A DNA stretch of 64,000 bases, taken from contig CAYJCZ010000002.1 of assembly GCA_964368835.1 (NCBI GenBank), forward strand, positions 83,893 through 147,892, written 5' to 3'. A model generated the notes under the pieces. The model had not been told where the DNA came from, ran no database searches, and worked only from the letters and a program-made list of their open reading frames with translations. Made by a program: the position numbers and the translations under genes. This document shows, one piece after another, positions 29 through 27,398 of the stretch (positions are counted from its first letter, which is position 1; each line of letters begins with the position of its first letter). The DNA is from an uncultured Candidatus Saccharibacteria bacterium (lineage in GTDB: Bacteria > Patescibacteriota > Minisyncoccia > Phycocordibacterales > UBA6065).

Positions 29-403
29 ATGAATACTACAAATAACACTGGCTCGACACCGGAGGCATCAAACAATGCTTCAAACAGCCAGCCTACTTCG
101 GGCCCTGAGAAAAACACGTTGATGGCGATCCTTTCATATATAGGGCCCCTCTCGATTGTTGCTTTTCTTGTCGCAAAAGATGATCCTTTCGTTAAGTACC
201 ATGTAAAGCAGGGATTTGTCCTTCTTACTATTGAAATAGCGCTCTGGGCGCTCGGCATGGTTCTATGGATTCTCTGGCCACTCATCAATCTCGCTCAGCT
301 CGCAGTAGTTATCTTGTCAGTTGTTGGTATCGTCAATGTAGTTGGCGGCAAAGAAAAGGAACTTCCTCTTGTTGGTAAGTATGCTTCACACTTTAAGATC
401 TAG
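29..403 (+). CDS. DUF4870-family small membrane protein (N-terminal low-complexity region, C-terminal TM helices)
   Basis: ORF with the DUF4870-like motif ILSYIGPLSIVAFLVAKDDPFVKYHVKQG and two to three hydrophobic helices; a terminator follows. Confidence 0.7.
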   Translation: MNTTNNTGSTPEASNNASNSQPTSGPEKNTLMAILSYIGPLSIVAFLVAKDDPFVKYHVKQGFVLLTIEIALWALGMVLWILWPLINLAQLAVVILSVVGIVNVVGGKEKELPLVGKYASHFKI

Positions 404-424
404 TTTTAGAAACTTTTAAGGTAA

Positions 425-460
425 AAAGCCCGTAGATGACTAATCTACGGGCTTTTTATT
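425..460 (+). terminator. rho-independent terminator
   Basis: Hairpin AAGCCCGTAGAT-gactaa-TCTACGGGCTT followed by a TTTATT run. Confidence 0.75.
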
Positions 461-596
461 GCGTAACCCTTGTTGTTGGTTGACTTTTGTGTTGTTGCGA
501 GTAGTATTCGCCAAGGACAGAAATGCTCTTTGTAAGCCTTTGCAAAAGGTGTGTATGTCCGTTCACGTGAATGACTGAAACGCAGAAAAGGTAATC

Positions 597-1148
597 ATGA
601 AAAAACTGTATCGTATCATCGCGGTGTTCGCGCTTTGCGCAATGCCGCTGTTAGTACAGGCTGTTCCCATCACGGGTGTAGTCAATATGTCGGGCGGTGC
701 GGCCCTCAATGGCACGCTCGGCTCGGCGACGGGTGTCACGAGTTGGAGTAACGTCAAGGTGACGAGTGTCACTTCGGGCTCCGCTCTCGACACGACCATC
801 AACGTCAACGACAGTGTCGCCATGGCTGCGCCATGGATGTTCAATTCCGGGCAACTGGGAATGTGGACGGTTGGAGGTTTCACCCTAGATCTGACCACGT
901 CGGCAGTCGAATTCCAGAGCGGCTCATTTCTGAGCGTAAAGGGATTCGGCTATCTTTCCGGAAATTCATTCGACAGTACCTACGGAGAATGGTTTTTTTC
1001 CTCACAAGGCCAAGCGGCTGACGGGGAATTTTCGTTTTCTGCCACAACTGTTGGTGGAAATGTTCCCGATAACGGAACGACCGTTGCGATGCTCGGTGCC
1101 GCTCTCCTGGGCTTGGTTTTATTGCGCGATCGGCTCACCTTCGTCTGA
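597..1148 (+). CDS. secreted protein with C-terminal VPDSG/PEP-CTERM-like sorting signal
   Basis: Signal peptide MKKLYRIIAVFALCAMPLLVQA. The C-terminus reads NVPDNGTTVAMLGAALLGLVLLRDRLTFV, a VPDxG motif plus hydrophobic helix plus basic residues, as in the PEP-CTERM/VPDSG-CTERM class. Confidence 0.7.
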   Translation: MKKLYRIIAVFALCAMPLLVQAVPITGVVNMSGGAALNGTLGSATGVTSWSNVKVTSVTSGSALDTTINVNDSVAMAAPWMFNSGQLGMWTVGGFTLDLTTSAVEFQSGSFLSVKGFGYLSGNSFDSTYGEWFFSSQGQAADGEFSFSATTVGGNVPDNGTTVAMLGAALLGLVLLRDRLTFV

Positions 1149-1171
1149 AGGTAAACTTCTCGCTAGCAAGC

Positions 1172-1196
1172 TGCGACTCTGTCGCGGCTTTTTTAT
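1172..1196 (+). terminator. rho-independent terminator
   Basis: GCGAC-tct-GTCGC hairpin followed by GGCTTTTTTAT. Confidence 0.6.
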
Positions 1197-1233
1197 ATTC
1201 AAAAATCGCATGCAGGGTATGCATGCGATTTGG

Positions 1234-1551
1234 TTAGGGGAGTCTGTTGCAGTATTGAAGTCGGGCAATCAGAGCATGAACATTTTCTGGAACAATCCTG
1301 TCGGTGATAATTGTGCGCGGAAAATTCGGCTCGATATCAAGACGGACGCCATCTTCGGTTCCTGGCCAAATGAAGTCTTCAACAAAATCCATACCACCTC
1401 TCGCTTTCATCCATTTCCAATAGGGATCAGGATCAGTGGATTCGATGAGAATTTCTGCGTGGAGAAAACAGCTGCAGTAAAGCGTGAGGTCACGAAATGA
1501 AGAGAACCATGTCGGGGGAGTGACAAGTTGATCACGAATGATAAGCGGCAA
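1234..1551 (-). CDS. hypothetical protein
   Basis: 105-aa ORF with non-repetitive composition and no recognisable domain. The competing plus-strand ORF 1051-1500 overlaps the upstream gene and looks less protein-like. Confidence 0.3.
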   Translation of the reverse strand: MPLIIRDQLVTPPTWFSSFRDLTLYCSCFLHAEILIESTDPDPYWKWMKARGGMDFVEDFIWPGTEDGVRLDIEPNFPRTIITDRIVPENVHALIARLQYCNRLP

Positions 1552-1673
1552 AAGGAGCGGTTTATTCTTAATCGTACCTCTATATATATGGGGGTCAAGG
1601 ATGAGGTGCGGTATTTGACATTATGTAATAAATGTGATAAATTCCAGTATAGAACCCTCAACAAAAATACACT

Positions 1674-2045
1674 ATGGCTACATTGAAACGAGTACCTTCG
1701 GATGATCCCATCCGTATCTCACAAGCAGGTGATACGCTGGCTCAAAGCCTGTTACTGCTTTTTCAGGATGCTGACGAGAGGATGAATCTCGCAAAGCGAT
1801 TCCTAACCGAACATCCGGTTGCGTTTGCCCGACTCGCTTCACTTTGGAAGGAGAAGTGCAAGGAGGATCAGGACGACATGGCTGACTGGGAATTTCGAAT
1901 GACCCAAGTCCAGAGGAACAGACATGTGATGGAAGTTGAAATAGGTCGGTACCCCACGAGTACAGACTTTAAAAAGCTTTTTCAAGCTTTTGGCCACATT
2001 AATGCCCAAAGGGCCGCTATCGAGCTCACCCTCGGAGCAAGCTAA
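1674..2045 (+). CDS. hypothetical protein
   Basis: 123-aa ORF followed by a terminator-like hairpin plus T-run at about 2070-2100. Confidence 0.5.
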   Translation: MATLKRVPSDDPIRISQAGDTLAQSLLLLFQDADERMNLAKRFLTEHPVAFARLASLWKEKCKEDQDDMADWEFRMTQVQRNRHVMEVEIGRYPTSTDFKKLFQAFGHINAQRAAIELTLGAS

Positions 2046-2152
2046 AGTAGGCTCTACAAGATCCGTCACAAACCATGTGGCGGATTTTTTTCTTTATATC
2101 CGGATCGGTACCCTTTGATTTTTCGTAAAAATATGATAATTTGCTAACACAT

Positions 2153-2223
2153 TGCCGGATCGTCTAAAGGTAGGACGTCGCTCTCTGAAAGCGAAAATTT
2201 TGGTTCGATTCCAAGTCCGGCAA
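2153..2223 (+). tRNA. tRNA-Gln (anticodon CUG)
   Basis: Cloverleaf folded by hand. Acceptor TGCCGGA/TCCGGCA is 7 bp with the U1-A72 pair typical of bacterial tRNA-Gln. D-stem GTCT/GGAC. Anticodon stem TCGCT/AGCGA with loop CTCTGAA (anticodon CTG). T-arm TTTGG-TTCGATT-CCAAG. Discriminator A; CCA is not encoded. Confidence 0.8.
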
Positions 2224-2224
2224 C

Positions 2225-2959
2225 ATGGAGATAATAGGTCAGACAGGCTACATATTCCTTTGCTCTGATGGTACTGAAAATGAGTGTCTTAAACGAAAAC
2301 TCTTGGGTGGAGGTAAGTCGTATTTTAAGCATATAAAAGACCTTAAAATTGGCGACTCGGTATATCTATATAATTACAACAGCAAAAGACTGCACGGTCC
2401 TTTTGTTGCGAGCTCAGTTGCTACAAAGGACATCGTTTCTTCTGCCTGGGGAGGCGATTATCCATGGCAAGTTACTTTTTCAAGACCTCGCAAATACTTA
2501 CCTATATCGCGAGATCATTTTAATAGCATTCTAAAATTCAGTAAGAAGGGTCTTCCTTTAGCTAAGGTAAGTGAGGATCAGATGGCAGCTCTGCAGAATG
2601 CTTTTCAGTCAAAAAAAAGACATACACATTATGATGACAGCGCTTCGCTAGTAACCGTAGACGGACACAAGGTACGAAGTGAGCCTGAGCGAAGGATTGA
2701 TGATTGGCTTTTTGAGAATAAAATCGCGCACGCCTATGAATATCCTATTCCTGGGATGAAGCGATGTGATTTTTATATTCCTGAAAAAAACGGTAATGGA
2801 ATCTATATAGAGTATTGGGGTCTGGAAAGTGACGCGTATTTAAAAAACAAAGCAGAAAAGCTAAAGATATATGCAGAGAACGGGCTAAGGCTGATTGAAT
2901 TAACAAAAAAAGATTTGAAGGATCTTGATACTAAGCTTGGAGAAGTCTTAGGACTATAA
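2225..2959 (+). CDS. DCD (PUA-like, EVE/YTH-related) domain fused to PD-(D/E)xK-like nuclease domain
   Basis: The N-terminus GYIFLCSDGTENECLKRKLLGG...IGDSVYLYNYNSKRLHGPFVASS...AWGGDYPWQVTF matches the Development-and-Cell-Death domain consensus (GxIFxCN..T..EC...LFG, LFLYNy..r.L.GiFeA.S, AW...FPaQV). The C-terminus RCDFYIPEKNGNGIYIEYWGLE...Y..K resembles a Vsr/helicase-IV C-terminal-like PD-(D/E)xK nuclease core. The ATG lies 1 nt after the tRNA-Gln 3' end. Confidence 0.6.
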   Translation: MEIIGQTGYIFLCSDGTENECLKRKLLGGGKSYFKHIKDLKIGDSVYLYNYNSKRLHGPFVASSVATKDIVSSAWGGDYPWQVTFSRPRKYLPISRDHFNSILKFSKKGLPLAKVSEDQMAALQNAFQSKKRHTHYDDSASLVTVDGHKVRSEPERRIDDWLFENKIAHAYEYPIPGMKRCDFYIPEKNGNGIYIEYWGLESDAYLKNKAEKLKIYAENGLRLIELTKKDLKDLDTKLGEVLGL

Positions 2960-2991
2960 ACTCAATTTAGTACAGTCGGCCTAAACGGTTA

Positions 2992-3561
2992 CTATTTATT
3001 TCGAAAGAAAGAAATCGCTTTTTGGAAAAGAGTTTGCTTTGGTTCTGGTGGGGGAGTGACTACTATTTTTTCAACGGATATTTCTGGAACAACAACAGGT
3101 GCAGGTTTCTTTGTAGTTTTTACTCGTAACTGTTTTTTTAATTCAAGATTTTCTTTTTTGAGTGCTGTAACCAATTTACGTTGTGCTTGTAATTTTTTTT
3201 CTAATAATTTATCAGGATCAGTAGATACTAGATTGTCGATAGTTTCTATTTGTTTTTGAAAAGCGGTTTGAGGCGTGTGAGTGTTTAATTTATTCTTTTC
3301 AATTTTTTCATTCCAATCGGTGAGTGTTCCCAGATCTTTGATGCCAAACTTCTTTGCAAATGCGGTCTGGTTTTTTAGCATTGCAATTTTTATGACAAGG
3401 GGATCAGTAAAACCGTACGACTGAAGCATCTCTTTTTTCATTCCTCGAAAATGTGCGGGTAAAGATTTCCACAAAACATACGTTTCGAACTCTTTTTCTT
3501 TATATGTAATTTTTTTGGCATTCTTTGGCATTTGATAATGATTGTACCAGAAAATTGGCAT
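2992..3561 (-). CDS. hypothetical protein (Lys-rich, predicted coiled-coil C-terminal half)
   Basis: 189-aa ORF with no recognisable domain. Confidence 0.5.
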   Translation of the reverse strand: MPIFWYNHYQMPKNAKKITYKEKEFETYVLWKSLPAHFRGMKKEMLQSYGFTDPLVIKIAMLKNQTAFAKKFGIKDLGTLTDWNEKIEKNKLNTHTPQTAFQKQIETIDNLVSTDPDKLLEKKLQAQRKLVTALKKENLELKKQLRVKTTKKPAPVVVPEISVEKIVVTPPPEPKQTLFQKAISFFRNK

Positions 3562-3621: not shown

Positions 3622-6600
3622 ATGCACTTTTCGAGACACCTTAAAAGAATAATTTTCTTTCTGGGCACAATAATTATTTTGTGCGGTTTTTTTTCTACAG
3701 TTTCTGCCGAGGAAATTACACCTGCTGCTACTGAAGCTGCACCTTCTGTCTCAGAAGTGACTGTGCCTAGTACAGATACAGCACCTGTTATCGAAGCTGA
3801 TCCAGCACCTGTCCTTGAAAATATTACAGAACCAACTACCGATGAAATTGTTTCCGCAGAAGTTACGACTGAAGAAGTACAACCAGAAGAAGTTACACCT
3901 GAGACCACAACTCCAGACGTTCCAGTAGTGACTGAAGAAGAATCAAACGCGTCACCTGAATCTGAGAATGAGGCAAATCAAATCCCTGTTGAAGAGGTTT
4001 TGAGTACACAGGAATCAAACGCAACAAGCTCAGAGTCTCAACAGCTTCCAGCTACAACGACAACGCCAACAGGTGATGTTTCAAATTTACCTACTCCATC
4101 CGTCTCTGACATAGTCATCGAACCGGTTTCAGAAATCGTTGCAACTTCAACACCCACATCGACTCCTGAAGTTGTTGAGGTTGTTCCACAAACCTCAACA
4201 TCAACTGCTCCGACAATTACTGAAGAGTTTGCAAACAACATCAAGACTGTCACAGTATCTTCAACACCAGAGCAAGATTTAATTGCGCCGATGGTCAATG
4301 TTCCCGTCAAAACAAAAATTTCTGAAATATTTAAAGTTGGTCAGGAGGATCAAATAAAAATTAAATGGCAGAACAATGGATACGAAGAGATGTCTTTTGT
4401 TGCAACAGATGAAGACGGTAACGGGTACATAGATCATGTCGCATGGATAGTTCCACACCTTTCCACACAGACGTTTGAAATTATTTTAATATCGAATGCA
4501 CTGCGTCTTGATGAGAATAAAAATGTACTCGAGGATATTTTTTCTGGTGTAGGTACTCTCGATCAGACATATGTAAGCCTGCTTAACGGTCAGTATATTC
4601 GAGCAACTTTTGAAAGAAGCCTCACGAGTGCTAATGACATTACTATATATGCGCGACCAACAGATAGTAATACTCCTGCAACAATAGAGGTTTATACCCA
4701 GGATGGTACACTCGTTGCAACTTTTTCTTCCATAGATCACGACGGTAGGTATCGTATTTTGCTTTCAGGTCTCGCAACCACAACAGATGTTTTCGATTTG
4801 AAAATAATTGGTAATGTGGATGTTGATTATGTAACTGACCCGCCAGCAAATGCATATTGGGTTGGCGGTACAGGAAATTGGTCTGATGCTGCAAACCACT
4901 GGGCAATTACATCAAACGGTGCTCCGGGCGCAGGTAACTTGCCAGATGCTACAACAAACGTATTTTTTGATTCGTCTTCAGGAGCCGCTTCAACAATTGT
5001 CACTATTGATACAGCCGCAACCGTTGGTTCTTTCACTATAAGCGGCTACACAGGAACAATCTCCCAGAACGATGATCTTACTATTACAAATTCGGGAGGT
5101 CAGACTGGAAATTATTCTCAAACATCTGCAGCTACATTTACTGCAATAGATCCTGGAACAAACACACTCACAGTGACAGGAAGTTTTGCTGTTACAGCAG
5201 GAACATTTCGTCGCTATACAGGTATAGGTAACAGCGCAGATCCTTTTTTGGTTTTCGATGTATACGGTTTACAGGGAATGAAGACAAACCTGTCGAGCTC
5301 ATACAAACTCAATAATGATATTGATGCTTCGGTCACGTCGGGTTGGAGCTCGGGTGCAGGATTTGATCCAGTTGGAAACGTAACAACTACTTTCTCTGGT
5401 ATTTTCGACGGTAATAATTTTTCGATCAGCAATCTATATATAAGTACGACAACCTCAAGCTATGTCGGACTCTTTGGATATTCTACAAACCTTGTAAAGA
5501 ACGTGACTCTTTCTGGTGTCTCGATTACTGCAACAAGCACGGCTGGTACGGTGGGTAGCACAGGTGCTAATGGAACCGACGGTGCTGCAACTTCTAACGG
5601 TGTTGCCGGCGGTGCAGGTACAGCAGGTAGCGCTCTATATTTAGGAGGCTTGGTTGGATACAACACGGGAACAATTACAAATGTAGCGGTCACGGGAAAT
5701 ATTCTTGGTACGGGTGGTGCTGGTGGAGCGGGTGGTAACGGAGGAAATGGTGGAAACATAACAACAGGTACAAACACTGGTGGTGCCGGTGGTGCGGCAG
5801 CAAGCAACGCAGCAGCAACTGGAGGTCTCGCGTATGTTGGTGGAGTCGTTGGATATTCTCAGCAAGGAAGCATAACAACTGCAACAAGTTCAGCTACGGT
5901 TACTGGTGTTGGAGGTGCTGGTGGTGCAAGTGGTAATGCTGGAAATGGAGGAAATGGATCTACCGCAGGAGTTGGTACGGGTATTGGAGGAGCGGGTGGA
6001 GCAGCTGGACTTCCAGGCGCAGGTAACATTGCATACGTTGGTGGTGTTGTGGGATGGCTTAACGCGGGAACAATCGATGTCTCTTATGCAACTGGAAATG
6101 TAACTGCAAGAGGTGGTGCGGGAGGTAATGCAGGAACATCTGGTACGGGCGGTAATGCAGGTGTTGGAGGAGGAGGTGCAAACATCGGTGGTATTGGTGG
6201 TGCTGGTGCTGCGGGTGGTGCGGCAGGTACAGCTTATGCTGGAGGTCTTGTTGGAAACAATTCAGGAACTATTGAAAATGGAAGTTACGCAACCGGAATA
6301 GTGCAATCAGCAGGAGGTGTTGCGGGCAATGCTTCTGCCGGAAGTGCAGGTGGTGCTTCTGCTGCTGCTTCTGTTGCGACTGCTGCATCGGGTGCAACGG
6401 CAACTGGTGGCGCGGGTGGAGCAGGTGCGATTGCATACGCTGGAGGATTGGTGGGTCAAAATAACACTCCTGGATTCATCGACGGTTCAATAGCAAACGT
6501 TTACTCAACTGGTGCTGTAACTGCTACCGGTTCTGCTGGAAAAAATGGAGCAGCTGGAGGTGCGGGAGGTAGCGCGTCACTTACAACGACTGGTACTGGT

Positions 6601-9600
6601 GGTGTTGGAGGTGCAGCGGGTGCTGGAGGTGCAGGTGGAGCTGCTTACAGCGGAGGATTGGTGGGAATAAATTTAGGATCAATTATCACAGCAAACTCTA
6701 CAGTCGGACTTGTGACAGTTGTCGGGGGTGATGCTGGAGTTGGTGGTACTGGTGGATCAGGAGGTACAAAGGGTTCTGCCGGAACATCTGGTGCGGGTGG
6801 TGCATCTGGTGCAGGTGGATCAGCTGCTGTTGTTGCTTCATACGCCGGAGGACTTATAGGAAGTAACGCCGGAACAGTTCGATATGCTTCATCAACAAAT
6901 GCAGTCACAGGTACAGCTGGCGCTGGTGGAGCTGGAGGTGCTGGTGTTGCTGCTCAAACTGGTCTTGCTGGTCTCGCCGGCGGAACTGGAGGTGCGGCGG
7001 GTATTCTATATATAGGAGGTGTCGCTGGTAATAACACTCTTGCTATTGTTGATAGCTATCACACAACTGGAAATATAACTGGTACTGCTGGTGTTGGCGG
7101 TGCAGCAGGTGCTGGTGGCGCGGGCGGTGCGTGGACTGGAGGTACTCAAGGTGCTGCGGGAACAGCGAACACTGGAGGCATTATTTATGCTGGTGGTGTT
7201 GTCGGTAACAACACAGGTACATCACTTCTTAATGTGTACTCGACAGTAGATGTAACGGGAACGTCAGGTGCAGGAGGCGCTGGTGCAAACGGTGGAAACG
7301 GATACACATTTACTACAGGTGTTGCTGGTGTTGTGGGAAGTGTTGGAGCAACTGGAGGTATCGCATATGTCGGTGGAGTTGTCGGATATGTAAACAACGG
7401 AGAAATTTCAAACTCATATTCAACCGGTGCTGTAACAGCAAACGGTGGTGTTGGAGGTGCAGGAGGTAATGGAGGAAATGGCGGAGCTGGAACTTCAAAC
7501 ACTGGAGGTGCCGGTGCAGCTGGTGCAGCCGGAGGTGCAGGTGGTGCCGCGTTTGGAGGAGGAGTTGCGGGGCAGATTATTTTAGGAACAGTAACAGGGA
7601 GCTACAACACTGGAGATATTATTGTTACCGCTGGTGCAGGTGGAGCTGCTGGAAATGGTGGAACCGGTGGAGTTGGCGGAACTAACTTTGCTGGTGGTGT
7701 AGGTGCGACTGCGGGTGCAGGAGGTGCAGGTGGTGTTGCGACTGCAGGTGGTGTTGCAGGACAAAGCGCCGGTGTAATTCAGTCGACATCATATTCAACA
7801 GGTGACGTTACAGCGACAGCTGGTACTGCGCAAGTTGGAGGTATAGGTGGAACCGGCGGAGCATCCGTTGGCACATTTGTTGGAGCTGCTGCGGTCGGTG
7901 GAGCTGGAGGTACCGGAGGAGCTGGTGCTATTGCATATGCGGCAGGTATTGTTGGTAACAATACGAACTCAATAATAAATTCCTATGCGAGTGGAACTAT
8001 TTTGGCGACGGCATCTGCTGGTGCTGCTGGTGGCGCTGCTGGACTTGGTGGTAGCAATGCATCAGGTGGAGCTTCGAGCACAGGTGCTGCGGGCGCAACT
8101 GGTGGAGCTGGAGGTGCGGGTGCCGTTGCTTATGCTGCTGGTATCGCGGGCTTAAATACAGCCTCACTAACTAATACATATATTGAGACAGGATCAGTTA
8201 CTTCTGTTGGTGGTAATGGAGGGGCAGGAATTATTGGAGGAGCTGCAGGTGTTGCGGGCACGGGAGCTCTCGGAGCAGCTGGTGGAACAGGAGGAGCCAG
8301 TGGTGTGGGTGCTATCGGATATGCCGGTGGTATCGTTGCGTTAAACTCTGCTGGAAACGTAAATGATTCACATGCGGATATTGCAGTTTCAGCAACTGGA
8401 GGATCTTCTGGTGCTGCTGGAGCTGGAGGTGCGGGTGGAGCGGGAGCAGCTGGTGGAGTTGGTGGAGCGGGTGTAGTTGGTGCTGCGGGATATGCGGGTG
8501 GACTCATTGGTATGAACACGGGTTCTATTCATGATTCGTATGCATCTGGTGATACTACCGCTATAGGTGGTGCTGCAGGTGCAAACGGCGGAGGTGGTAC
8601 TGGAGGTAACAGAGCAACTTCTGCCGGAGGTGCTGGAGGTGCTGCGGGTGCAACTGCAACAAACATCGGAGGTGTTGGTTATGCTGGAGGACTTGTTGGA
8701 TTTAATTCTACTAACGGAAACGTTCAGAATTCTTATGCAGTAGGAGATGTGTCTGCTACTGGTGGTGCTGGTACAAATGGTGCAGCAGGAGCAAACGGTG
8801 GAACTTCAACTGGAGCGTTTACTGGAGGTACTGGTATTGCCGGAGGTGTAGGAACAGCTGGTGGTGTTGCATCAGCGGGCGGTCTCATTGGTTTCAACAT
8901 TGGTGCCATAGCTTCTGATTCATATGCAAGCGGAAATGTTTCTGCTGTTGGTGGAGCTGGAGGACTCGGTGCTAATGGTGGAAATGGCGGTGCTTCTGGT
9001 GCCGGCATTGTTGGTGTTGCAGGTGTTACCGGAGGTACGGGTGGTGCTGGCGGTGCTTCTTATGCGGGAGGAGTTAATGGTAGCAACACTGCTATTGGTG
9101 TAACTATTACAATTCCAAATACAACAGGAACAGTCGCTTCAACTGGCGGTGCCGGAGGTAACGGTGGAACCGGAGGTAATGGTGGTGCTGGAGGAAGTAC
9201 AACTGGAGCAATTGGAGGTGCCGGAGGTGCTGCGGGTGCGGGAGGCGCTGGAGGATTGGCTGCAAGTGGTGGAGTTGCTGGACTAAGTAGCGCCGGAGTT
9301 ATTCGTGATCTTACCTATGCGATTACGACGGTAACTGCAACTGGTGGTGCTGCAGGAGTAGGTGGAGTTGGAGGTGATGCGGGCGCATCTGGAAATATTT
9401 CTGGAAGTGCGGGTGCAACTGCCGGAGCTGGAGGTAACGGCGGTGCTGGAGGTGCAGTTTATTTGGGTGGACTTGTGGGTGACAACACCGGTGTTATTGA
9501 AAATGTCATTGTGACTGGTAGCTTAAGTGCAACTGGAAGCAATGGTGGTGTCGGTAATGTTGGTGGTGTTGGTGGAAGTGGTTCGCTAGGCACTGGAGGC

Positions 9601-12600
9601 CACGCTGGTGGAATTGGCGGTGCTGGTGCAACTGGCGGTGCTGGTGGTGCGATGTATGTAGGAGGACTTGTTGGTCAAGGTAACGGAAATATTTCAAACT
9701 CTCGTGCAACGGGCGGTACTATCACAGTCACAGGAGCAAATGGTGCGGTTGGTGGCGCGGGATCTGCCGGAGGTGCAGGTGGATCTGGAAGTGGTAAAAA
9801 TGGTGTTGGAGGTGCAGGCGGAACAGGAGGCGCTATAGGTCCAGTCTATGCAGGAGGTGCAATTGGTTTTAATTCCGTCGCCTCTGTTCTTATTGATACT
9901 GTGTATTCAACAAATAATGTAACTGTTACAGCGGGTACAGCAGGTAATGGAGGTGCGGGTGTTGTAGGTGCTAATGGTGCTGCGGGAAGCATTGGTGGTG
10001 CTGGAGGCGCCGGAGGAGCGGTTGGTCTTGCCGTGTATGCTGGAGGACTTGAAGGTTACAATTCTGGAGCAGGTCATACGATTAAAGATTCTTACGCAAC
10101 AGGAAATATTACGGTCACAGGCGGTAATGGTGGAGTTGGTCAGGTTGGTGGCGCAGGAGCGAATGCAATAAGTGCAGTTGCTGGCGGTGCAGGAGCAACC
10201 GGAGGCGCTGGTGGCGCTGGTGGGTTTGCATATGGTGGAGGTCTTGCTGGATTTACCAACACCACTGTTTTAATTAGCGGTTCTCATGCTAATGGAAATG
10301 TAACTGTTACAGCAGGAAACGGAGGTAATGCCGGAAATGGTGGCGCGGGCGCAACCGGTGGAGCAGCTCAAGTGGGTGGTGCCGGTGGCGCGGGCGGTGC
10401 AGCTGGACTTGGAGGTGCATCATATGCCGGAGGTCTCGTAGGCTTAGTGAATTCAGGAAATATTTCACATGCATATTCAACAGGTGTAATTGCAGGAACT
10501 TCTGGTAACGGAGGAAATTCTGGTGCGGGTGGTGCTGGAGGTGCTGGAGGATCTGGTGTAGTGGGAACGATAGGAACAGTCGGAACTGTGGGTGCTTCAG
10601 GCGGAGTAAATTATACCGGTGGACTTGTTGGCGACAACACATCACATGTTTTAAATTCATATCACATTGTTGGTGCAGTAACTGCGACAAGTGGTAATGG
10701 TGGAATTGGAGGCGCTGGTGGTGCTGGTGGTGCATCTGGAACTATTACAAACGGTACAGCCGTTGCGGGAGCTGCGGGTGCTGCCGGCGGTGTCGGTGGT
10801 GCACTTTCTGTCGGAGGGTTGGTGGGAAGAAATGGTGTGACTGCACTTTCTGCCTCAATCACAAGTTCGTATGCAACGACAAGTGTTACAGCTATTGGTG
10901 GAAATGGAGGTGATGGTGGCGCCGGAGGTAATGCGGGAAATGGTGCTGCAGGTACAAATCATATTGGCGGAGCTGGAGGTGCTGCGGGTGCGGGAGGTGC
11001 AGCGGCAATTACTCTTGCTGCAGCAGTCCAAGCCGGAGGACTTGTTGGTCAAAATGTTTTGGGAACTATTTCTGCAAGCTATGCGGAAACTGGAACTGTA
11101 ACCGCTACCGGCGGAACAGGAGGAGCCGCTGCATCAGGTGGTACTGGTGGAGCAGGAACAGGTACTGCAATTTATGGAGTTGGCGGTGCAGGTGCAGCTG
11201 GTGGTGCAGGTGGTGCGGTGTATGCAGGAGGACTGGTTGGTTATACAACTGGCGTTGTTGAAGATGTATCGTATTCAAAGACAACACTTGATGTGACTGG
11301 TGGTAATGGTGCAAACGGCTCGGATGGATTAACTGCAGCAGCAAATAGTGGTGCTGCGGGAAGTGTTCCTGGTGCCGGTGGTGCTTCGGGAATTGTGTAC
11401 GCTGGAGGTCTTGCGGGTTATGCAACGGCTGATGTTATTTCTTCCTACGCTAGTTACGATGCTGGCTCAGGAAAAGGTAATATCACCGTAACAGGTGGAA
11501 CTCCGGGAAATGGTGGTAATGCTGGAAATGGCGGTTCTGGTTTGGCCGCTGGAGGCGCGGGTGGTGCAGGAGGAGTTGGTACACTTGGTATAGGTGGAGC
11601 GGCATCGGGTGCTTATGTTGGAGGACTTCTTGGATTTGGTTCAGGAGTTATTACTTCATCATATTCGACAACTCTAAGTATTTCAGGAAACGAGCATGCT
11701 GGTGGTACTGGTGGTACTGGTGGTGTGGGTGGAAGTGGCGGTACTGGTATTGGTGCATTCAACGGTGGAGTTGGTTCAGTGGGTGGCGCTGGTGGTGCTG
11801 GAGGTATTCGCGCTTACGGTGGACTCATTGGAGATTTCATATCAACAATCGGTACTATTCAGGGATTTTCATATTCAACAGTAAATATTTCTGTTACTGG
11901 TGGTAATGGTGGAAACGGCGGACAAGGAGGAGTTGGTGGAACATCAGGAGCAAGTCAATCATCGGGTACCGCGGCTGCAGCTGGTGTTGGAGGTGTGGGC
12001 GGCGCCGGTGCTCCAACGTATGGTGGCGGGTTGATAGGACGCATCACAGGAACTACACAGATCATGCGAGTTTCAAATTCAAGTGCAACTGGTGACGTGT
12101 CGGTCGTCGGTGGAAATGGCGGTAATGGTGGAGCAGGAGGTGTAGGTGGAAATGGTTCGACAGGAAGTGCTACTCATACTGGAGCTGCCGGAGGACTTGG
12201 TGGTGTTGCGGGAGTTGGCGGTGAAGCAGATGCTGGAGGACTTGTCGGTCTAAGCAACTTAACTTCTGGTTCGATTGATTACCTTTCTGTATTTACAACA
12301 GGAACTGTGAGCGCGACGGGTGGTAATGCGGGAACTGCAGGTACAGGTGGTGTTGGTGGAGCATCAGCAACAGGTGCAGCGGGTGGTGCTGGAGGCGGTG
12401 CCGTAGCATCTGCAGCGGGTGGTGCTGCTTACGCTGGTGGACTTATGGGAATTCATAGAGTTACTATCACTCCAGCAGGAAGCGGTATTATAAATTCTTA
12501 TGCAACCGGAGCGGTAAGTGCAACAGGTGGTATAGGATCAACAGGAAATACAGGTGGTGCTGCTGGAGTCGCTGGAACTATTGGTGGTGCCGGAGGTGCG

Positions 12601-15600
12601 GGTGGAGCATCGGGTATTGGAGGTGAAGCAGATGCTGGAGGACTCGTAGGTCTTACAAGCGTCACAACTGGATTTATTCATTACCTAAATAGCTATTCAA
12701 CAACAGGAAGCGTAACCGCGACTGGTGGTGCATCGGGTAATGGTGGTAACGCAGGCGCATCAACTGCAGGTGGAACTGGTGCTGGTGGTGCAACTGGTGC
12801 TTCGGGTGCAAGCTCTGCAGGTGGTGCCGCATATGCTGGAGGTTTGATCGCACAAACAAGTGCAACTGCAAGCAACAACTTATTAATCACAACAAGTTAT
12901 TCTACACGTGAGGTAAATGCAGTTGGTGGCGCATCGGGTAATGGTGCAAACGGTGTTGTCGGAGGTGCTGGTGGAACCTCTTCAATTGGTGGTGTCGGAG
13001 GTGCAGGAGGAGCTACGGGTGCGGGCGGTGCTGCATATGCTGGAGGACTCATCGGATCAAATGGAACAGCGGCTGGTGCCGGTGGAGGTACTATTGAAGA
13101 TAACTCATATGCATCTGGAATTGTAAATTCAACAAGTGGAAATGTTGGAACAGCTGGAACTGGTGCTGCTGCAGGTGCAAGCAATAGTGGTACTGGTACC
13201 ACTGCTGCAACTGGCGGCGTTGGAGGTGCTGCGGGTGCAGGCGGTGCAAGCTTTGCTGGTGGTTTGATTGCCAATAACGGAGCAACAGGAGTTGTTTTAA
13301 ATTCATACGCAACTGGTGCGGTTACATCTCTTGCAAGAAATGGTGGTGTGGGTGGACTCGGTGGTAACGGCGGAGACGCATCTGCTAGCACGGGTATTGG
13401 CGGTACGGGTGGCGCTGGAGGTGCTGCGGGTGCAGGTGGCGCAAGTTATTCAGGTGGACTTGTTGCGAACAACGTTAACGTTCTCAACACAATCACAACG
13501 AGCTATTCTACGAGCCCTACTGTAACAGGTACAAGCGGTAATGGTGGTGTGGGTGGCACGGGTGGTGATGGTGGAACACCTGGTACAGCTGTAGCTGGAG
13601 GTGCTGCTGGAGCTGGAGGTGCCGCGGGTGCCGGCGGAGTTTTATATACAGGTGGACTTATTGGTTTTAATAACGGTACGGTACAAACTTTCTCATACAC
13701 ACGGGCTAATGTGACTGGTACTGCGGGTGCCGGAGGTGCTGGAGGTATTGGTGGTAATGGTGCAAATGGAGCGGCGGGAACTTCTGGTGCTGGTGCAAAC
13801 GGAGGTGTTGGTGGAGCAGGAACAGCCGGAGGTGCTGGGGGTATTGGATATGGTGGCGGTTTTGTGGGTTGGCACAATACCTCACGAACAATTAGTGATT
13901 CATTTGCGACGGGAAGTCTTACTCTTTTAGGTGGAGCGGGAGGCGCTGGTGGTGTTGGCGGAAACGGTGGAAACGGTGGAGCTGGAGCATCAGCGGGAAC
14001 AGGAGGCATAGGAGGAGCAGCGGGTGCAAGCGGCGCAGGTACCGTTGGAGGTGTGAAGTATGGCGGAGGATTTGCTGGCTACAACTTGGGCACTATAAAT
14101 ACAGCGTACTCATTGGGATCAGTTTCTGTAACAGGAGCTTCTGGTGGTGTGGGAGGTAATGGAGGAAATGGTGGTGATGGTGGCAATGGCGGTCCAACTG
14201 GTGCCGGAGGTGCTGGAGGAGCGCAGGGTGCAACAGCGGCTGGTGGAGCTGGAGGTGCGCTTCATGCAGGAGGACTTGTCGGCTACAACTTCACAGCTGG
14301 AATTTTTTCAAATTCATGGACTGCAGGCACGGTGGTAACTGTTGGTGGAGCTGGTGGTAATGGTGGTGTGCGAGGTACATCCGGAACAGGAGGAAATGGT
14401 GGAACCGGAGCTGGCGGCGCAGGTGGAGCAGGTATTGCTGGTGGTGCTGGAGGCGCTGGAGGTGCAAGTAATGCCGGAGGTTTGGTTGGATCAAATATCA
14501 CGAGCGGTTCATTTAGTAATAGTTACGCATCGACGACGGTGACCATGACTGGTGGTGTTGGTGGAAATGGTGGCGTTGGAGGCAAAGGAGGTAATGGAGG
14601 TGTCGGTGGATCTGCTGGAAACGGCGGAGCTGGTAGCGTTGGATTGGTTGGTGGAGTTGGAGGTGTCGGTGGTGCTGTCACAGGAGGTGGTTTGGTAGGA
14701 GACAACACGGGAATAATCACAAATGCGTATTCACTTGGTAACGTAACTGCAACTGCGGGTACTTCAGGTACTGGTGGTACTGGTGGCGCTGGAGGAAATG
14801 GTGGTGCAGCAGGCGGAGCGAGTGCAGGTGCAAATGGTAACGGAGCAAACGGAGGCGCTGGAGGCGCTGGTGCGAACGCGTTTTCTGGAGGTCTTCTAGG
14901 AAGCCATGCTACTTCTCTAGTTTCAAATACATATTCAGTTGGTGTACCTGTAGCAACCAGAACATCTGGTGCGGCTGGAGGTGCTGCAGGTGCAGCTGGT
15001 ACAGGTGGCACGGGAGGAAGTGCTGGTAGCAGTGGTGCTGCCGGAGCTTCATCTGCTTTAGAGCGTGCCGGAGGTATAGTGGGAAATCCAGTGAGCGGTA
15101 CCTGGGCATCTAGCTATTGGGATAGGACAACATCAGGAAAAACTGATGGTGCTGGAAACGCAACTACACCAACTAATACGACAGGCAAACTAACATCAGA
15201 GATGAAAGAGCAGGCGACATTTACGAGCTGGGATTTTACCACTCTTCCTATTTGGAAAATTGCAGAAGCATCTACATATCCATATTTTAATTATCAAGTT
15301 GCCCCAGACGCTCCTACAAGCGTAGTTGCTGTTGCTGGAAACGGTGAAGCAACAATTACATTTATTCCACCAGCTAGTACTGGTGGAGGACCGATTTTGT
15401 CTTATACCGTTACATCAAGTCCTGGAGGATTTACGGCAATTGGAGGTTCATCTCCAATCACAATCACCGGACTCACTAACGGTGTTACATACACATTCAC
15501 TGTTACAGCTACAAATGCTTACGGGACAAGCATTTCGTCTGGAACAAGTAATTCTGTAACTCCTGCAACTGTTCCTGATGCGCCAACTATTGGCACTGCA

Positions 15601-18600
15601 ACCCGAGGAAACGGCGAGGCGACAATTACATTTACTCCACCTGTATCTAATGGTGGATCAGCAATTACGTACTACACAGTTTCATCAAACACTGGAGGAT
15701 TTGTCGCGTACGGCGGTTCATCTCCAATTACAATCACCGGATTAACAAACGGCCAGGCGTATACATTTACAGTTACTGCGACAAACGCTGTTGGAACGAG
15801 CACACTTTCTGCTACTACAAACTCTGTGACACCAGCTACTGTCCCTGATGCTCCAACTATTGGAACAGCAACAGGAGGTAATGGTCAGGCGACAATTACA
15901 TTTACTGCACCAGTATCAAACGGAGGTTCAGCTATAACCTATTACACTGTCACATCAAACACGGGAGGATTCACCACATATGGTGCTTCATCTCCACTTA
16001 TTGTGACAGGCCTTACAAATGGTCAGGCATACACGTTTACGGTCACCGCAACAAATGATGTTGGAACAAGCACTGTATCTAGTGCAACGAATTCTATAAC
16101 ACCAGCAACTGTTCCTGATGCGCCAACTATTGGTACTGCAACAGGAGGTAATGGTCAGGCAACAATTACATTCAGTGCACCAGTATCAAACGGCGGATCA
16201 GTAATCACGTACTATACAGTTTCATCAAACACCGGAGGATTCACCACATACGGTGCTTCATCTCCACTCGTCGTAACAGGTCTCACCAATGGTCAGGCAT
16301 ATACTTTCACCGTCACTGCAACAAACGCAGCTGGAACAAGTACTGCATCTGTTGCAACAAACTCTGTGACTCCAGCAACAGTCCCAGATGCACCTACAAC
16401 TGTTTCTGCTGTACGGGGAAATGGAGAGGCGACAATTACATTCAGCGCTCCATCTTCGAACGGAGGATCAGCGATCACATACTACACGGTCACATCTAAT
16501 GTTGGTGGATTAACTACATATGGTGCTTCATCTCCGCTTGTTGTAACAGGTCTTACAAACGGACAGGCATACACATTTACAGTCACCGCAACAAACGCAG
16601 TTGGAACAAGTACAGCATCAGTAGCAAGTAACTCAATTTCTCCAGCAACAGTTCCAGATGCACCAACCATCGGTACTGCTACAGCAGGAAATGGGGAGGC
16701 AACAATTACATTTACTCCGGGAGCGAGTGATGGATATTCATCAGTGTTGTATTACACCGTAAGTTCGAATGTTGGCGGGTTTGTTGTGTACGGTGGAGCT
16801 TCACCAATCATAGTTACAGGTCTTACAAATGGTAGTACATATAATTTCACCGTTACCGCCACAAACGCAGTTGGAACAAGCAGCGCATCAGTCGCAACAA
16901 ATTCTGTAACTCCTGTTACAAACCCAGGTGCACCGACTGGCGTTTCTGCAGTTAGTGGAAACGGTGAAGCAACAATTACATTTACAGCACCAGTATCAAA
17001 TGGTGGATCAGCAATTACGTACTACACCGTAAGTTCAAACGTTGGAGGATTCGTTGCGTACGGCGGTTCATCTCCGATTACACTTACAGGTCTCACTAAT
17101 GGCACGACGTATACGTTTACTGTCACTGCAACAAATGCCTTTGGGACAAGTACTGCTTCGGCTACAAGTAATTCCGTTGTTCCTGCGACGGTACCTAATG
17201 CACCAACTATTGGAACAGCAACAGGAGGTAATGGTCAGGCAACAATTACATTCAGCGCACCAGTATCAAACGGAGGTTCAGCAATTACGTACTACACCGT
17301 AAGTTCAAACACAGGAGGATTCGTTGCATACGGCGGTTCATCTCCGATTACACTCACGGGCCTTACAAACGGCCAGGCATACACATTTACTGTCACTGCA
17401 ACAAACGCAGCTGGAACAAGCACAGCTTCAAGCGCCACTAACTCTGTAACTCCTGCTACAGTTCCTGATGCTCCAACAAGTGTCTCTGCTGTGCGAGGAA
17501 ACGGCGAGGCGACAATTACATTCACCGCACCAGTATCAAATGGTGGTTCAACTATTACTAACTACGTTGTGACATCAAATACTGGTCTTACAGCAACAGG
17601 TGGTTCATCACCGATTACACTCACAGGCCTTACAAATGGCACAACATATACGTTTACTGTTGCTGCAGTGAATGCCGTTGGTACAAGTACTCCGTCAGCT
17701 ACTACAAACTCTATTACACCTGCAACAACTCCTGATGCGCCAACTATTGGCACAGCAACAGGAGGTAATGGTCAGGCAACAATTACATTCACTGCACCAG
17801 TATCAAACGGAGGTTCAGCAATTACGTACTACACAGTTTCATCAAACACTGGAGGATTCGTTGCGTACGGCGGCTCATCACCAATCACAATTACCGGTCT
17901 TACAAATGGCCAGGCATACACATTCACTGTCACCGCAACAAATGATGTTGGTACAAGCACTGCGTCTGTCGCAACGAACTCTATAACACCTGCGACAACT
18001 CCTGATGCGCCTACTATTGGTACAGCCACTGCTGGTAATGGACAAGCAACAATTACATTCAGTGCTCCAGTATCAAACGGCGGATCAGCAATTACGTACT
18101 ATGCGGTCACATCTAACACAGGTATAACTGCATACGGCGGAACATCACCAATCACAGTCACGGGACTTACCAACGGTGTTGCATATACATTCACTGTCAC
18201 AGCGACAAATGCTATTGGTACAAGCACTGCTTCAGTTGCAACAAACTCTGTAACTCCTGCAACTGTTCCAGATGCACCAACTAACGTCGCGGCTTCTATT
18301 GGAGACACAACTGCAGGTATCACATTCTCTGCTCCTGCAAATAACGGTTCTGCGATTACGTACTACACTGTGACTTCAAATACGGGCGGTCACTCAACAA
18401 CAACCTATTCAACGTCCGCAACGATGACCGGACTCACTAACGGTGTTACGTACACATTCACTGTTACCGCAACAAATGCTATCGGTACAAGTACTGCGTC
18501 TGGTACAAGCAACGGCATAACCCCGGCAACTGTCCCAGGAGTTCCTCTTAACCTTGCTGCTACTGTGGGAGACAGCAGTATTGATTTGTCGTGGTCAGCA

Positions 18601-19703: not shown

Positions 19704-20312
19704 ATGACTAAAACAACAGTATCCTATTTTGCGGCAGCGATGTTACTCCTATTCATCCCAGGCCTTCCAAAGGGCTTGTTTGCAGCCGAATTGTCTTTTG
19801 AGCCAATTTTGAGTGCGGGTAGTAGTACACCTACGGTAATTGAGGTTCGAATTGATCCCCAGGCAAAGAGATTAAATGTTGTTGAGGGTGTAATACGATT
19901 TTCCGGCGAGCCATCAGATGATTTATTTGTCGAGGTAGAGAATGGTCAATCGATTTTGCCCATCTGGCCAACTCCACCGCAGTACAATAAAGACAAGAAA
20001 TCTATAAGTTTTACCGGTGGAATTCCTAATGGTTTTGATTCTCCCGGCTTACTTTTTAGAGTGCGTATTTCTTCGGCTGTTTCTGGCGATGTGACTGTTT
20101 CGTATAGTGATGGGAATGCGTACCTAAATGACGGAAAGGGAACGACGGAGGCTGTGGACTCTAAGCCGATCACAGTACATGTTGATAAGACGTTAGAAAA
20201 TGCTAAAACCAAGCCTTCATCTGGTTATGGTACATATGTTATAATTCTTCTATCAATTTTGGTCGTTCTTATAGTTATTTTCAAATATGGCTTTAAAAAA
20301 AATGACAAGTAG
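19704..20312 (+). CDS. membrane-anchored cohesin-like domain protein 1 (signal peptide, cohesin-like beta-sandwich, C-terminal TM anchor)
   Basis: Starts 3 nt after the giant gene stop. Signal peptide AAAMLLLFIPGLPKGLFAAE. The domain contains VRID...KRLNVVEGVIRFSGEPSDDLFVEVENGQSIL...SISFTGGIPNGF...LLFRVRISSAVSGDVTVSY, a cohesin-type pattern (F..D.L.V....G / GGIP / FkV.a..G...i.f). C-terminal helix YVIILLSILVVLIVIF followed by KYGFKKNDK. Confidence 0.65.
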   Translation: MTKTTVSYFAAAMLLLFIPGLPKGLFAAELSFEPILSAGSSTPTVIEVRIDPQAKRLNVVEGVIRFSGEPSDDLFVEVENGQSILPIWPTPPQYNKDKKSISFTGGIPNGFDSPGLLFRVRISSAVSGDVTVSYSDGNAYLNDGKGTTEAVDSKPITVHVDKTLENAKTKPSSGYGTYVIILLSILVVLIVIFKYGFKKNDK

Positions 20313-21771
20313 CAGGGCAGTACGGCGAATATTCCTATTCGCAGTCGTCATTTTCTTTCTAGCATCTCGTGGCGCTAGCGCAGCAACGTTGCAGATCAAT
20401 TCCGATTCGACAACACTATCGCCAGGAAGCATCACGATGCTATCTGTGATCCTAAACTCCGAAGGTGTTGCTATAAATAACGCCGAAGCAAAAATTATAT
20501 TTCCGAGAGACTTGTTGGAGGTAGTTTCGATAAATAAAAACGGTTCGATATTTTCATTGTGGGTAGAAGAACCAACATACTCAAACTCTACGGGTGTAAT
20601 TAACTTTAACGGAGGCATTCCAACACCTGGCTACACTGGTTCATTTGGCTCTGTAGTGACTATCGTGGTTAAGGCTAAAGCAGCAGGCAAGGCAGACCTT
20701 ATTTTTGCTGATGCAGCTGTTCGTGCCAATGATGGCTCAGGAACTGATGTGTTGACGAGCAAGCAGGGTAGGAGCCTCAGTGTGATTCAAAGCGAGCAGC
20801 CTGTTACTCCAACTGTTGTGCCGGTGAATTCAACTAATCTGGCGTTGCAAATAACGTCTCCAACTCACGGAAATCAAGATTTCTGGTATAAGGATACAGA
20901 TCCAATATTTCGATGGAATGTTCCAGCCGGCGCTGATGCTATTCAGACAACTATAGATAGTAATACCAAGGGCGTACCGCACGTCACTTATATTCCTACA
21001 ATCAAGGAGAAATCTGTGAAAGATTTGGAGGATGGAATCTGGTATTTCAAGGTGCGTGCTAGCCGTGGTGAAGAGTGGGGACCAATCGCTACGTATGTTA
21101 CTAGGATCGATAACACTATCCCAAAGATTAATAATGTCGCTTTCTCATATGATGACGACAAAAAGATACTCAACATCAAAGCAGACGTCATAGATGAAAC
21201 CTCTGGGCTAGATTACTATAATGTCTATGTAAACGATCTCTTGGTTAAGAAGGTTCTTGCTGCAGAATTTACTAACGGTAATTACGGTCTTGCTTTCAAT
21301 CGACCGGGTGACAATACCGTAAAATTGGTTGCAGTGGATCGTGCTGGCAACAGCGACGAAGCAACTGGTGCTTTCAAGGCATCTCCAATGTTAAACCAGG
21401 TATCTGAAGCATCAAAGGCACCAGCTAAAAGCGAATTATTAATTTCTATTGGCTCGTTTGCTATTCCAGCTCTGTATCTAGGAATAATAATTCTCTGTGG
21501 AATCTTTATTATATTTATTGGAGCGTTTAGGCTCGGGAATCATTACAGCAGGCTTCGTGGCAAATTGAAAACACGCACTGCTCTCGTACAGGGCGATAAT
21601 CTAAAGGTGCTTCTGTTATTAAAGAAGCGTCTTGAAAAGCATCTCGAGATACTGCAGCAGACACGACATAGCAGAGTTCTCTCAAAGGAAGAAAAAGATA
21701 TTAAGGAAGCAATTGAAGTGGATTTGGATGAAGTTGACCGAGCTATAGAGGAACAGAGTAGTTTGTCTTAG
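20287..21771 (+). CDS. membrane-anchored cohesin-like domain protein 2 (signal peptide, cohesin-like domain, Ig-like middle region, TM helix, cytoplasmic coiled-coil tail)
   Basis: Signal peptide RIFLFAVVIFFLASRGASA. The domain LQINSDSTTLSPGSITMLSVILNSEGVAINNAEAKIIFPRDLLEVVSINKNGSIF...VINFNGGIPTPGYTGSFGSVVTIVVKAKAAGKADLIF matches the cohesin pattern (YD..LEvvsi) and is paralogous to the upstream protein. TM helix LLISIGSFAIPALYLGIIILCGIFIIFIGAF, then a charged tail. The gene overlaps the upstream gene by 26 nt; the alternative start at 20302 lies in frame 15 nt downstream. Confidence 0.65.
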   Translation: MALKKMTSSRAVRRIFLFAVVIFFLASRGASAATLQINSDSTTLSPGSITMLSVILNSEGVAINNAEAKIIFPRDLLEVVSINKNGSIFSLWVEEPTYSNSTGVINFNGGIPTPGYTGSFGSVVTIVVKAKAAGKADLIFADAAVRANDGSGTDVLTSKQGRSLSVIQSEQPVTPTVVPVNSTNLALQITSPTHGNQDFWYKDTDPIFRWNVPAGADAIQTTIDSNTKGVPHVTYIPTIKEKSVKDLEDGIWYFKVRASRGEEWGPIATYVTRIDNTIPKINNVAFSYDDDKKILNIKADVIDETSGLDYYNVYVNDLLVKKVLAAEFTNGNYGLAFNRPGDNTVKLVAVDRAGNSDEATGAFKASPMLNQVSEASKAPAKSELLISIGSFAIPALYLGIIILCGIFIIFIGAFRLGNHYSRLRGKLKTRTALVQGDNLKVLLLLKKRLEKHLEILQQTRHSRVLSKEEKDIKEAIEVDLDEVDRAIEEQSSLS

Positions 21772-22410: not shown

Positions 22411-22458
22411 TGGGACCTTTTATATTTAAGACATTCATTTATATATGCATCGTACAAT

Positions 22459-22893: not shown

Positions 22894-22919
22894 TTTTGAA
22901 AGCATACACATGCTAACGG

Positions 22920-25642: not shown

Positions 25643-25712
25643 AAAAGTTACATATTATTTAATAACCTAAATAGTATATATCGGTTTTACTTTATTTGGG
25701 CATGGTAGAATC

Positions 25713-27389: not shown

Positions 27390-27398
27390 AATCGCTTT

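Follow-up and report, generated by a model that had tools for sequence, protein, structure and literature searches.

A DCD domain joined to a Vsr/Bax1-like nuclease domain next to tRNA-Gln in a Saccharibacteria contig: a candidate modification-dependent restriction endonuclease

A compact two-domain protein encoded directly behind a tRNA gene

We analyzed a stretch of 64,000 nucleotides from an uncultured Candidatus Saccharibacteria bacterium (assembly GCA_964368835.1, contig CAYJCZ010000002.1, positions 83,893 to 147,892 of the forward strand), hereafter called the window, and focused on an open reading frame (ORF) for 244 residues that directly follows a tRNA-Gln gene. The encoded protein combines an N-terminal DCD (for Development and Cell Death) domain with a C-terminal nuclease domain of the PD-(D/E)xK type, and its probable, though by no means certain, function is that of a stand-alone type IV-like restriction endonuclease that depends on base modification. 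The assignment of the two domains is firm; the ligand and the activity are proposed by analogy and from the genomic context of relatives. The features of the locus are compiled in Table 1.

The N-terminal domain was assigned with the Pfam model Dev_Cell_Death (PF10539), which matched residues 8–107 with an E-value of 2.5e-21 and 76.2 bits, well over its cut-off of 27.8 bits, and which was aligned over profile positions 2–106 of 126. The same model is present in all full-length homologues, and the three sequence blocks from which a preliminary description of this DNA had deduced a DCD domain are all contained in the protein. An AlphaFold2 model built with 28 family members (mean predicted local distance difference test score, pLDDT, of 91) displays two domains separated by a low-confidence linker at residues 129–140, with a pLDDT of 57 for the block of residues 131–140. 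According to this model, the N-terminal half is an EVE/YTH-type PUA fold with the PUA-type beta-barrel, and a profile of the family matched the EVE protein MJECL36 with an E-value of 2e-4, in agreement with the PUA-like character that had been claimed for the domain. F11, Y33, Y49, N50, W75, Q82 and R96, which are aromatic or polar and conserved, should be regarded only as candidates for a pocket with an aromatic cage that would accommodate a flipped modified base.

The C-terminal half is not covered by any Pfam or NCBIfam model, the Pfam families Vsr and DUF559 did not match the protein even at E-values up to 10, and a sequence search of the PDB with the single protein returned no significant match. 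The PADLOC model PDC-S69 matched this region with an E-value of 2.3e-29 (residues 127–241 corresponding to profile positions 164–280 of 289), and the PADLOC models HEAT_CxxC_PD-DEXK and PDC-S68 matched with E-values of 1e-9 and 2e-9, respectively. The top structural match of the nuclease domain is the catalytic domain of a homing endonuclease (3r3p), homing endonucleases are also found among its viral matches, and its best matches are the DNA-acting proteins I-Bth0305I, Vsr, NGO0050, Bax1 and TnsA. As modelled, the C-terminal half is a restriction-endonuclease fold resembling Vsr, I-Bth0305I and Bax1.

Predicted active site of the nuclease domain

Conservation was determined from three alignments, comprising 28 full-length relatives, 29 nuclease-domain sequences and 148 diverse carriers of the nuclease module. 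The residues D146-G-H148, S152, E155, H169, Y171-E172, D182-F, E196, W198-G199, Y205 and K212 are invariant or nearly so in all three. Only E155, E196 and K212 are strictly invariant in the 148 carriers, at least 90% of which keep D182, a residue that is invariant within the full-length family. Weak but consistent profile alignments place E155 and D182 at the positions of E170 and D196 in I-Bth0305I, which are E25 and D51 in Vsr, and D182 and E196 at those of D305 and E318 in Bax1. Judged by this conservation, E155, D182 and E196 constitute the predicted acidic metal-binding residues of a PD-(D/E)xK nuclease. The lysine of the (D/E)xK motif is absent two residues after E196, where W198 is found instead, and we infer that K212 on the following helix takes over its role. 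The Vsr-type PD-(D/E)xK core that had been proposed initially is supported with regard to the modelled fold and the acidic residues, but not with regard to the canonical lysine position.

Further differences concern the remaining catalytic residues of the structural relatives. No conserved histidine follows the IEYWG strand in the place of H69 of Vsr or H213 of I-Bth0305I, and the second aspartate of these enzymes (D97 in Vsr, D222 in I-Bth0305I) is not conserved in the nuclease module. K212 comes to lie near the position of D222 when IEYWG is set against IEVNG by hand, a register from which the weak HMMER alignment differs. Going by the conserved residues, the nuclease domain is best described as a restriction-endonuclease fold with a conserved E-D-E-K set; taken strictly, the families Vsr, EDxHD and Bax1 do not include it.

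Table 1. Features of the tRNA-Gln/DCD-nuclease locus (positions in the window)
Feature	Position	Strand	Basis or remark
Terminator-like hairpin at the end of the upstream 123-aa ORF	2058..2088	+	
tRNA-Gln, anticodon CTG	2153..2224	+	ARAGORN
Indel junction CAACA	2221..2225	+	L092 compared with the window by alignment and blastn
DCD-nuclease ORF, 244 aa	2225..2959	+	Stop codon 2957-2959
DCD domain, EVE/YTH-like PUA fold, predicted modified-base reader	2246..2608	+	Residues 8-128
Interdomain linker with A8 run	2609..2644	+	Residues 129-140, low AlphaFold2 pLDDT
Nuclease domain, restriction-endonuclease PD-(D/E)xK fold, nearest to the Vsr/I-Bth0305I/Bax1 type	2645..2956	+	Residues 141-244
E155 codon, predicted catalytic glutamate in the first helix	2687..2689	+	Invariance and alignment
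D182 codon, predicted metal-binding aspartate	2768..2770	+	Conservation and alignment
E196 codon, IEYWG strand, predicted third acidic residue	2810..2812	+	Invariance and alignment
K212 codon, following helix, candidate relocated catalytic lysine	2858..2860	+	Invariance

The nuclease module is shared by proteins with different N-terminal domains

When only the C-terminal domain was used to look for homologues through a word index, no matches were obtained. An exhaustive search with a profile of the nuclease domain recovered 8020 cluster representatives at an E-value of up to 1e-3 and 2168 at up to 1e-10, in which the module is nearly always located at the C-terminus. The best 148 carriers were surveyed for N-terminal domains recognisable by Pfam: DCD was found in 20, KilAC/ANT in 14 and ankyrin repeats in three, and uracil-DNA glycosylase, zinc ribbons, HEAT and TPR occurred as single cases. 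Every one of these 148 proteins was matched by PDC-S69 through the nuclease. Judged from its partners, the nuclease module is a portable effector that is joined to varied binding domains. As an observation apart, the three carriers fused to ankyrin repeats have long repeat arrays and, together with the uracil-DNA glycosylase fusion, represent unusual combinations of sensor and effector.

The combination of DCD and nuclease itself was detected in at least 110 protein clusters, with identities from 76% down to about 30%, when a profile of the full-length family was searched. Prokaryotic DCD-PD(D/E)XK fusions that are associated with type I restriction-modification (R-M) loci have moreover been described before, together with the prediction that modified DNA is what they restrict (Bell, Wolf & Koonin 2020, BMC Biol 18:159; PMC7641849). 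The view of the preliminary description that a bacterial DCD-nuclease fusion is unusual does not stand in this form. Only two members carry an organism name, one from Parcubacteria bacterium C7867-002 and one from a Thermoplasmata archaeon. A pattern scan of 185,579 species-representative genomes, which undercounts, confirmed three loci, namely in a Parcubacteria metagenome-assembled genome (MAG), in a Saccharibacteria chromosome and in a MAG labelled Gammaproteobacteria, which indicates that the gene is patchily distributed.

Most archaeal-type relatives reside next to restriction-modification or other defence-type genes

To compare genomic neighbourhoods, ORFs were called in 53 loci and the neighbouring proteins were clustered. 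In an archaeal-type branch of about 32% identity, which includes the Thermoplasmata protein, a defence-type gene lies within 4.5 kb at 34 of 40 loci. These neighbours are type I, IIG or III R-M, DndB or PLD genes, usually co-oriented and immediately upstream, and by their Pfam names they comprise N6_Mtase/Eco57I-type methylases, HsdS, HsdR, N6_N4 methylases, a DndB-like protein and a PLD/NgoFVII-like nuclease. A cluster of proteins of about 312 residues without Pfam match also recurs downstream of archaeal-type genes (L031, L034 and L050; representative at L031 10210-11148); its N-terminus resembles an EVE/ASCH-type domain by eye.

An exception within the bacterial branch is the closest species-level homologue of the window protein, with 77% identity (loci L001 and L093); it stems from a related species, the Pif1 helicases of this species and of the window being 90% identical. 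Directly upstream of this homologue lies a block of about 9.5 kb (L093 425-9889) with genes for a large serine recombinase, a bPH_2 protein, an N6/N4 methylase, an S24/LexA-like repressor and a DUF2188 protein, and with a cyclic oligonucleotide-based antiphage signalling system (CBASS) pair consisting of a CD-NTase and Cap15. This block is likely a mobile defence island.

The Pif1-like helicase, which carries a C-terminal HTH_40 domain, is encoded near DCD-nuclease genes in the window (25713-27389), in L093 (15545-17212) and in L014 (2-1192), at a distance of 22.7 kb in the window and of 4.8 kb in the other two. In PDC-S68, the nuclease module is likewise joined to a helicase, of the Pif1/RecD-like type. 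The recurrence of Pif1 could mean that the two genes are functionally linked, or simply that synteny has been kept.

A 1.35-kb indel accounts for the tRNA-abutting gene start

The tRNA-Gln is the sole tRNA that ARAGORN finds in the window, and the Rfam model RF00005 places it at 2153-2223 (60.5 bits, E-value 8e-12). It has no encoded CCA and its discriminator base is A2223, so that the single base C2224 separates the discriminator from the ATG at 2225; the gene is indeed located immediately 3′ of the tRNA, as noted at the outset. This ATG is the only plausible start because homologues begin five to eight residues ahead of the invariant GYIFLC block, and it is the only one that retains the invariant N-terminal residues. 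The gap between tRNA and ATG is too short for a Shine-Dalgarno site or a promoter, and the hairpin listed in Table 1 sets the upstream 123-aa ORF apart from the unit of tRNA and DCD gene.

The origin of this arrangement is illustrated by contig L092 of a sister strain, which is about 96–97% identical to the window at the DNA level on both sides of an indel and shares with it the upstream 123-aa ORF, the tRNA-Gln, the DCD gene and the downstream gene of 189/190 codons. L092 contains 1350 bp that are absent from the window, consisting of an isochorismatase gene, a bPH_2 gene and a leader of about 95 nucleotides that ends in the Shine-Dalgarno sequence GAGGAGG. The leader is conserved at L092 2150-2245 and L001 5935-6030, upstream of DCD-nuclease genes of 76% identity, and ends with TGGTTCTACCCCGAGGAGGCCAA; it matches no Rfam family and ARAGORN finds no tRNA in it. 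Because the 77%-identical homologue in L001 has kept it, the leader is ancestral to the gene. The simplest explanation for the aligned sequences would be a deletion in the lineage of the window between CAAC^A and CAAT^A, by which the gene's own promoter-proximal leader and ribosome-binding site would have been lost. The same tRNA-abutting arrangement is found in contig L012, which is 96% identical to the window.

The position next to a tRNA had been taken to mark an integration hotspot. We compared the synteny of the tRNA-Gln flank with L092, L012 and the related species and found it to be plastic, which agrees with this idea insofar as the flank is variable; the gene, however, is situated on the conserved side, and its abutment on the tRNA results from the 1.35-kb indel. 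In the related species, it has remained in place with respect to the same Pif1-M23-helicase block, while all the intervening DNA differs. Neither of the two hallmarks of a tRNA-targeted integrative island, an integrase and a direct repeat of the tRNA 3′ end bounding the inserted DNA, was detected: there was no integrase among the flanking ORFs that were scanned (29-3558 and 19704-29309) and no tRNA-derived repeat (attR) of at least 16 nucleotides elsewhere in the 64-kb window. The gene is not demonstrably cargo.

A tRNA-adjacent position has arisen independently in another case. At L011 7899-7994, on the Saccharibacteria chromosome OZ246395.1, the ATG of a 41%-identical DCD-nuclease homologue lies 5 nucleotides after a tRNA-Ser(GGA) with encoded CCA, again with no Shine-Dalgarno site. 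Adjacency to a tRNA as a trait of the family was rejected on the basis of about 90 other loci without an adjacent tRNA. We also considered whether the leader is a decayed remnant of a tRNA or attR. When anchored at the ATG, its last 24 nucleotides agree with the 3′ end of tRNA-Gln in 16 positions, a comparison made post hoc. In local alignment, the real score was reached or exceeded by 143 and 325 of 500 shuffled sequences and is not significant, which leaves such an origin unproven.

Selection on the gene and its expression in the window strain

The ratio of nonsynonymous to synonymous substitution rates (dN/dS) among the copies in the window, L092 and L012 amounts to 0.21–0.24. The gene is under purifying selection, and the window copy retains every invariant residue. 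A run of eight adenines had been pointed out in the region between the domains; it does lie in the low-confidence linker, but at 2611-2618 and not at 2609-2616. Its length is equal in three independent assemblies of the window's strain, and L092 has TCAGAGATAAGA in its place. Phase variation at this strain-specific tract was rejected on the present data.

Because a Shine-Dalgarno site does not fit in front of the ATG, expression would rely on read-through from the tRNA. The processed trailer, starting with 5′-CAUG, would represent an almost leaderless mRNA. A more far-reaching version of this idea, which we rate as very improbable, is a ‘tRNA punctuation’ in which the nuclease is transcribed only as the trailer of the tRNA and set free by 3′ processing as a leaderless mRNA, coupling its expression to the transcription and processing of the tRNA, perhaps with the DCD domain sensing modified tRNA or RNA and not DNA; it is suggested by the gene starts behind tRNA-Gln here and behind tRNA-Ser in the Saccharibacteria chromosome.

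Comparison with characterized and predicted systems

The fusions described by Bell, Wolf and Koonin have the same architecture and the same proposed role as the protein analyzed here, and their R-M context is reproduced by the archaeal-type loci counted above. Prokaryotic DCD domains were called rare and mostly archaeal or hyperthermophilic in that study (PMC7641849). The window protein, in contrast, belongs to a bacterial branch mostly without R-M neighbours, whose best named relative is from Parcubacteria and of which another relative occurs in Saccharibacteria.

When compared to known modification-dependent enzymes, the protein differs from the 5-hydroxymethylcytosine-dependent PvuRts1I and AbaSI in its domain order, since the nuclease is N-terminal in these enzymes, in its reader, a DCD/PUA domain in place of their SRA-like one, and in its active-site residues, and it shares no family-level sequence homology with them. 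Type IV enzymes with PUA-like readers (for example the EVE/PUA-HNH enzyme VcaM4I and EVE- or YTH-McrB) employ an HNH or McrBC GTPase-nuclease effector and not a Vsr/Bax1-like one. The fold, the acidic triad and the local motif DF..(V/I)YIE..G...YL.K..EK are common to the window nuclease and to the Bax1 NUS, VRR-Nuc, I-Bth0305I and Vsr group. However, membership in Bax1 (DUF790) is contradicted by a score of 13.5 bits against an NCBIfam cut-off of 500 and by the lack of an adjacent XPB-like gene. Plant DCD proteins (NRP and others) contain this Pfam domain too and share its conserved blocks, but they are not fused to a nuclease, and their role is in signalling of stress and cell death.

The C-terminal nuclease module is held in common with PDC-S69, PDC-S68 and HEAT_CxxC_PD-DEXK. 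The N-terminus of PDC-S69 is a different domain, with P0043, a near-full-length match, having no Pfam match there, and the window protein does not match PDC-S69 over its full length. The PDC models were obtained by a ‘guilt-by-embedding’ screen, which considered genes lying inside BREX, DISARM and type I R-M loci; these candidates are experimentally untested (bioRxiv 10.1101/2024.01.29.577857). A literature search for ‘PDC-S69’ yielded no papers. As both the architecture with its interpretation (published in silico in 2020) and the nuclease module (an untested PADLOC candidate) were already available, the discovery is incremental. What the window adds is a bacterial (Patescibacteria-type) clade of the DCD-nuclease family, a defined candidate active site, the recognition of a module common to this family, PDC-S69 and PDC-S68, and an odd gene start that the 1.35-kb indel has fused to a tRNA.

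Proposed mode of action and alternative explanations

In the mode of action that we propose, the DCD domain would bind a modified base in invading DNA; our guess, drawn from the analogous EVE and SRA readers, is a modified cytosine. Binding of the base would tether the nuclease, which would cut nearby by means of its E-D-E metal site and K212, probably as a dimer and with no need for a partner methyltransferase. In the window strain, the 1.35-kb indel would have taken the leader with its Shine-Dalgarno site and left the ATG 2 nucleotides past the discriminator of tRNA-Gln, and expression would then depend on read-through from the tRNA promoter. No DNA methyltransferase is found among the flanking ORFs scanned (29-3558 and 19704-29309), a scan that took in neither the giant ORF (3622-19701) nor the remainder of the genome. 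The restriction or defence function put forward in the preliminary description is supported in part, namely by the domains, the active site and the context of relatives; its statements on the unusual fusion, the insertion and the A8 tract do not stand as they were made.

Several observations weigh against a modification-dependent restriction endonuclease. In the literature, neither a member of the family nor any DCD domain has been shown to bind modified nucleic acid, and the lysine is missing from its canonical place. In the bacterial branch the gene is found mostly alone among small accessory, ordinary or uncharacterised genes, for example those for IF3, an RNase J-like protein and MsrA, and in the window itself the scanned flanking ORFs match no defence model, apart from generic helicase matches of the distant Pif1 gene. 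The gene may be poorly expressed here owing to the loss of the Shine-Dalgarno site. Finally, the copy in L012 (928-1467) carries the substitutions D146H and E155G at invariant nuclease residues; judged by their conservation, these changes would probably disable its nuclease, and the copy may represent a naturally inactivated allele, which hints at relaxed constraint in some strains.

We therefore weighed other functions against restriction of modified DNA. The protein might be an RNA-directed nuclease whose DCD domain reads a modified base in tRNA, rRNA or phage RNA and whose Vsr/RAP-like domain cleaves or binds it, acting as a toxin, an abortive-infection factor or an RNA-processing factor. 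RNA binding is predicted for the DCD domains of eukaryotes, the two domains are structurally similar to YTH and RAP, and the gene starts 1–5 nucleotides after a tRNA in two independent lineages. We nevertheless consider this function unlikely, since the best nuclease matches act on DNA, the partner genes of relatives encode DNA methylases and R-M subunits, sister architectures possess DNA-binding N-termini (KilAC, uracil-DNA glycosylase, zinc ribbons) and the other loci, about 90 in number, have no adjacent tRNA. A smaller chance is given to a DNA-repair or housekeeping endonuclease, in which the DCD domain would see damaged or naturally modified DNA of the cell itself and the nuclease would nick beside it as do Vsr or Bax1. 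The likeness in fold and motif to these repair nucleases, the uracil-DNA glycosylase fusion of one module carrier, the ordinary neighbours in the bacterial branch (IF3, RNase J-like, MsrA) and the position kept between two related species would fit such a function, but the very patchy distribution (three loci in the undercounting scan of 185,579 genomes), the strong tie of the archaeal-type branch to R-M genes, the match of the module to PADLOC defence-candidate models and the differing contexts of relatives do not.

It is similarly doubtful that the gene is a selfish, homing-endonuclease-like mobile gene, for which the DCD domain would only serve to bind DNA, or that in the window strain it is an unexpressed remnant nearing its loss. 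The structural match to 3r3p, the homing endonucleases among the viral matches, the presence of the gene in many unrelated contexts, the loss of its own leader and Shine-Dalgarno site and the E155G substitution in L012 speak in favour of these readings. Against both stand the absence of presence/absence polymorphism of the gene at any locus seen, the lack of any intron or intein context, the integrity of all invariant residues in the window copy, the dN/dS of about 0.22 and the persistence of the tRNA-abutting arrangement in L012 at a nucleotide divergence of about 4%.

If the reading as a modification-dependent restriction endonuclease holds true, its DCD domain would be the first to have been tested and to have its nucleic-acid ligand defined, which would bear on the targets of plant DCD cell-death proteins. 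The protein would further be a compact modification-dependent nuclease, at 244 residues, that is possibly useful for mapping base modifications, and small-genome Patescibacteria would be seen to carry stand-alone type IV-like enzymes.

Other features of the window

Further downstream of the DCD-nuclease gene, on the plus strand, lies the giant ORF mentioned above, which encodes 5359 residues and contains a long Gly/Ala/Thr-rich repetitive region and, on the side of its C-terminus, many tandem modules of about 90 residues of the type ‘PDAPT...TVTATNAVGTS’. By its sequence it looks like a surface protein. The DNA underlying this ORF has a G+C content of 0.52–0.53 and a very strong GC skew of 0.33–0.38 at 6–14 kb. 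At the other end of the locus, the G+C content of positions 1-2000 is 0.47 compared to 0.38 for the region of 2–4 kb; this part of the window encodes a DUF4870 membrane protein (29-403) and, at 597-1148, a protein whose sorting motif is of the VPDSG-CTERM type.

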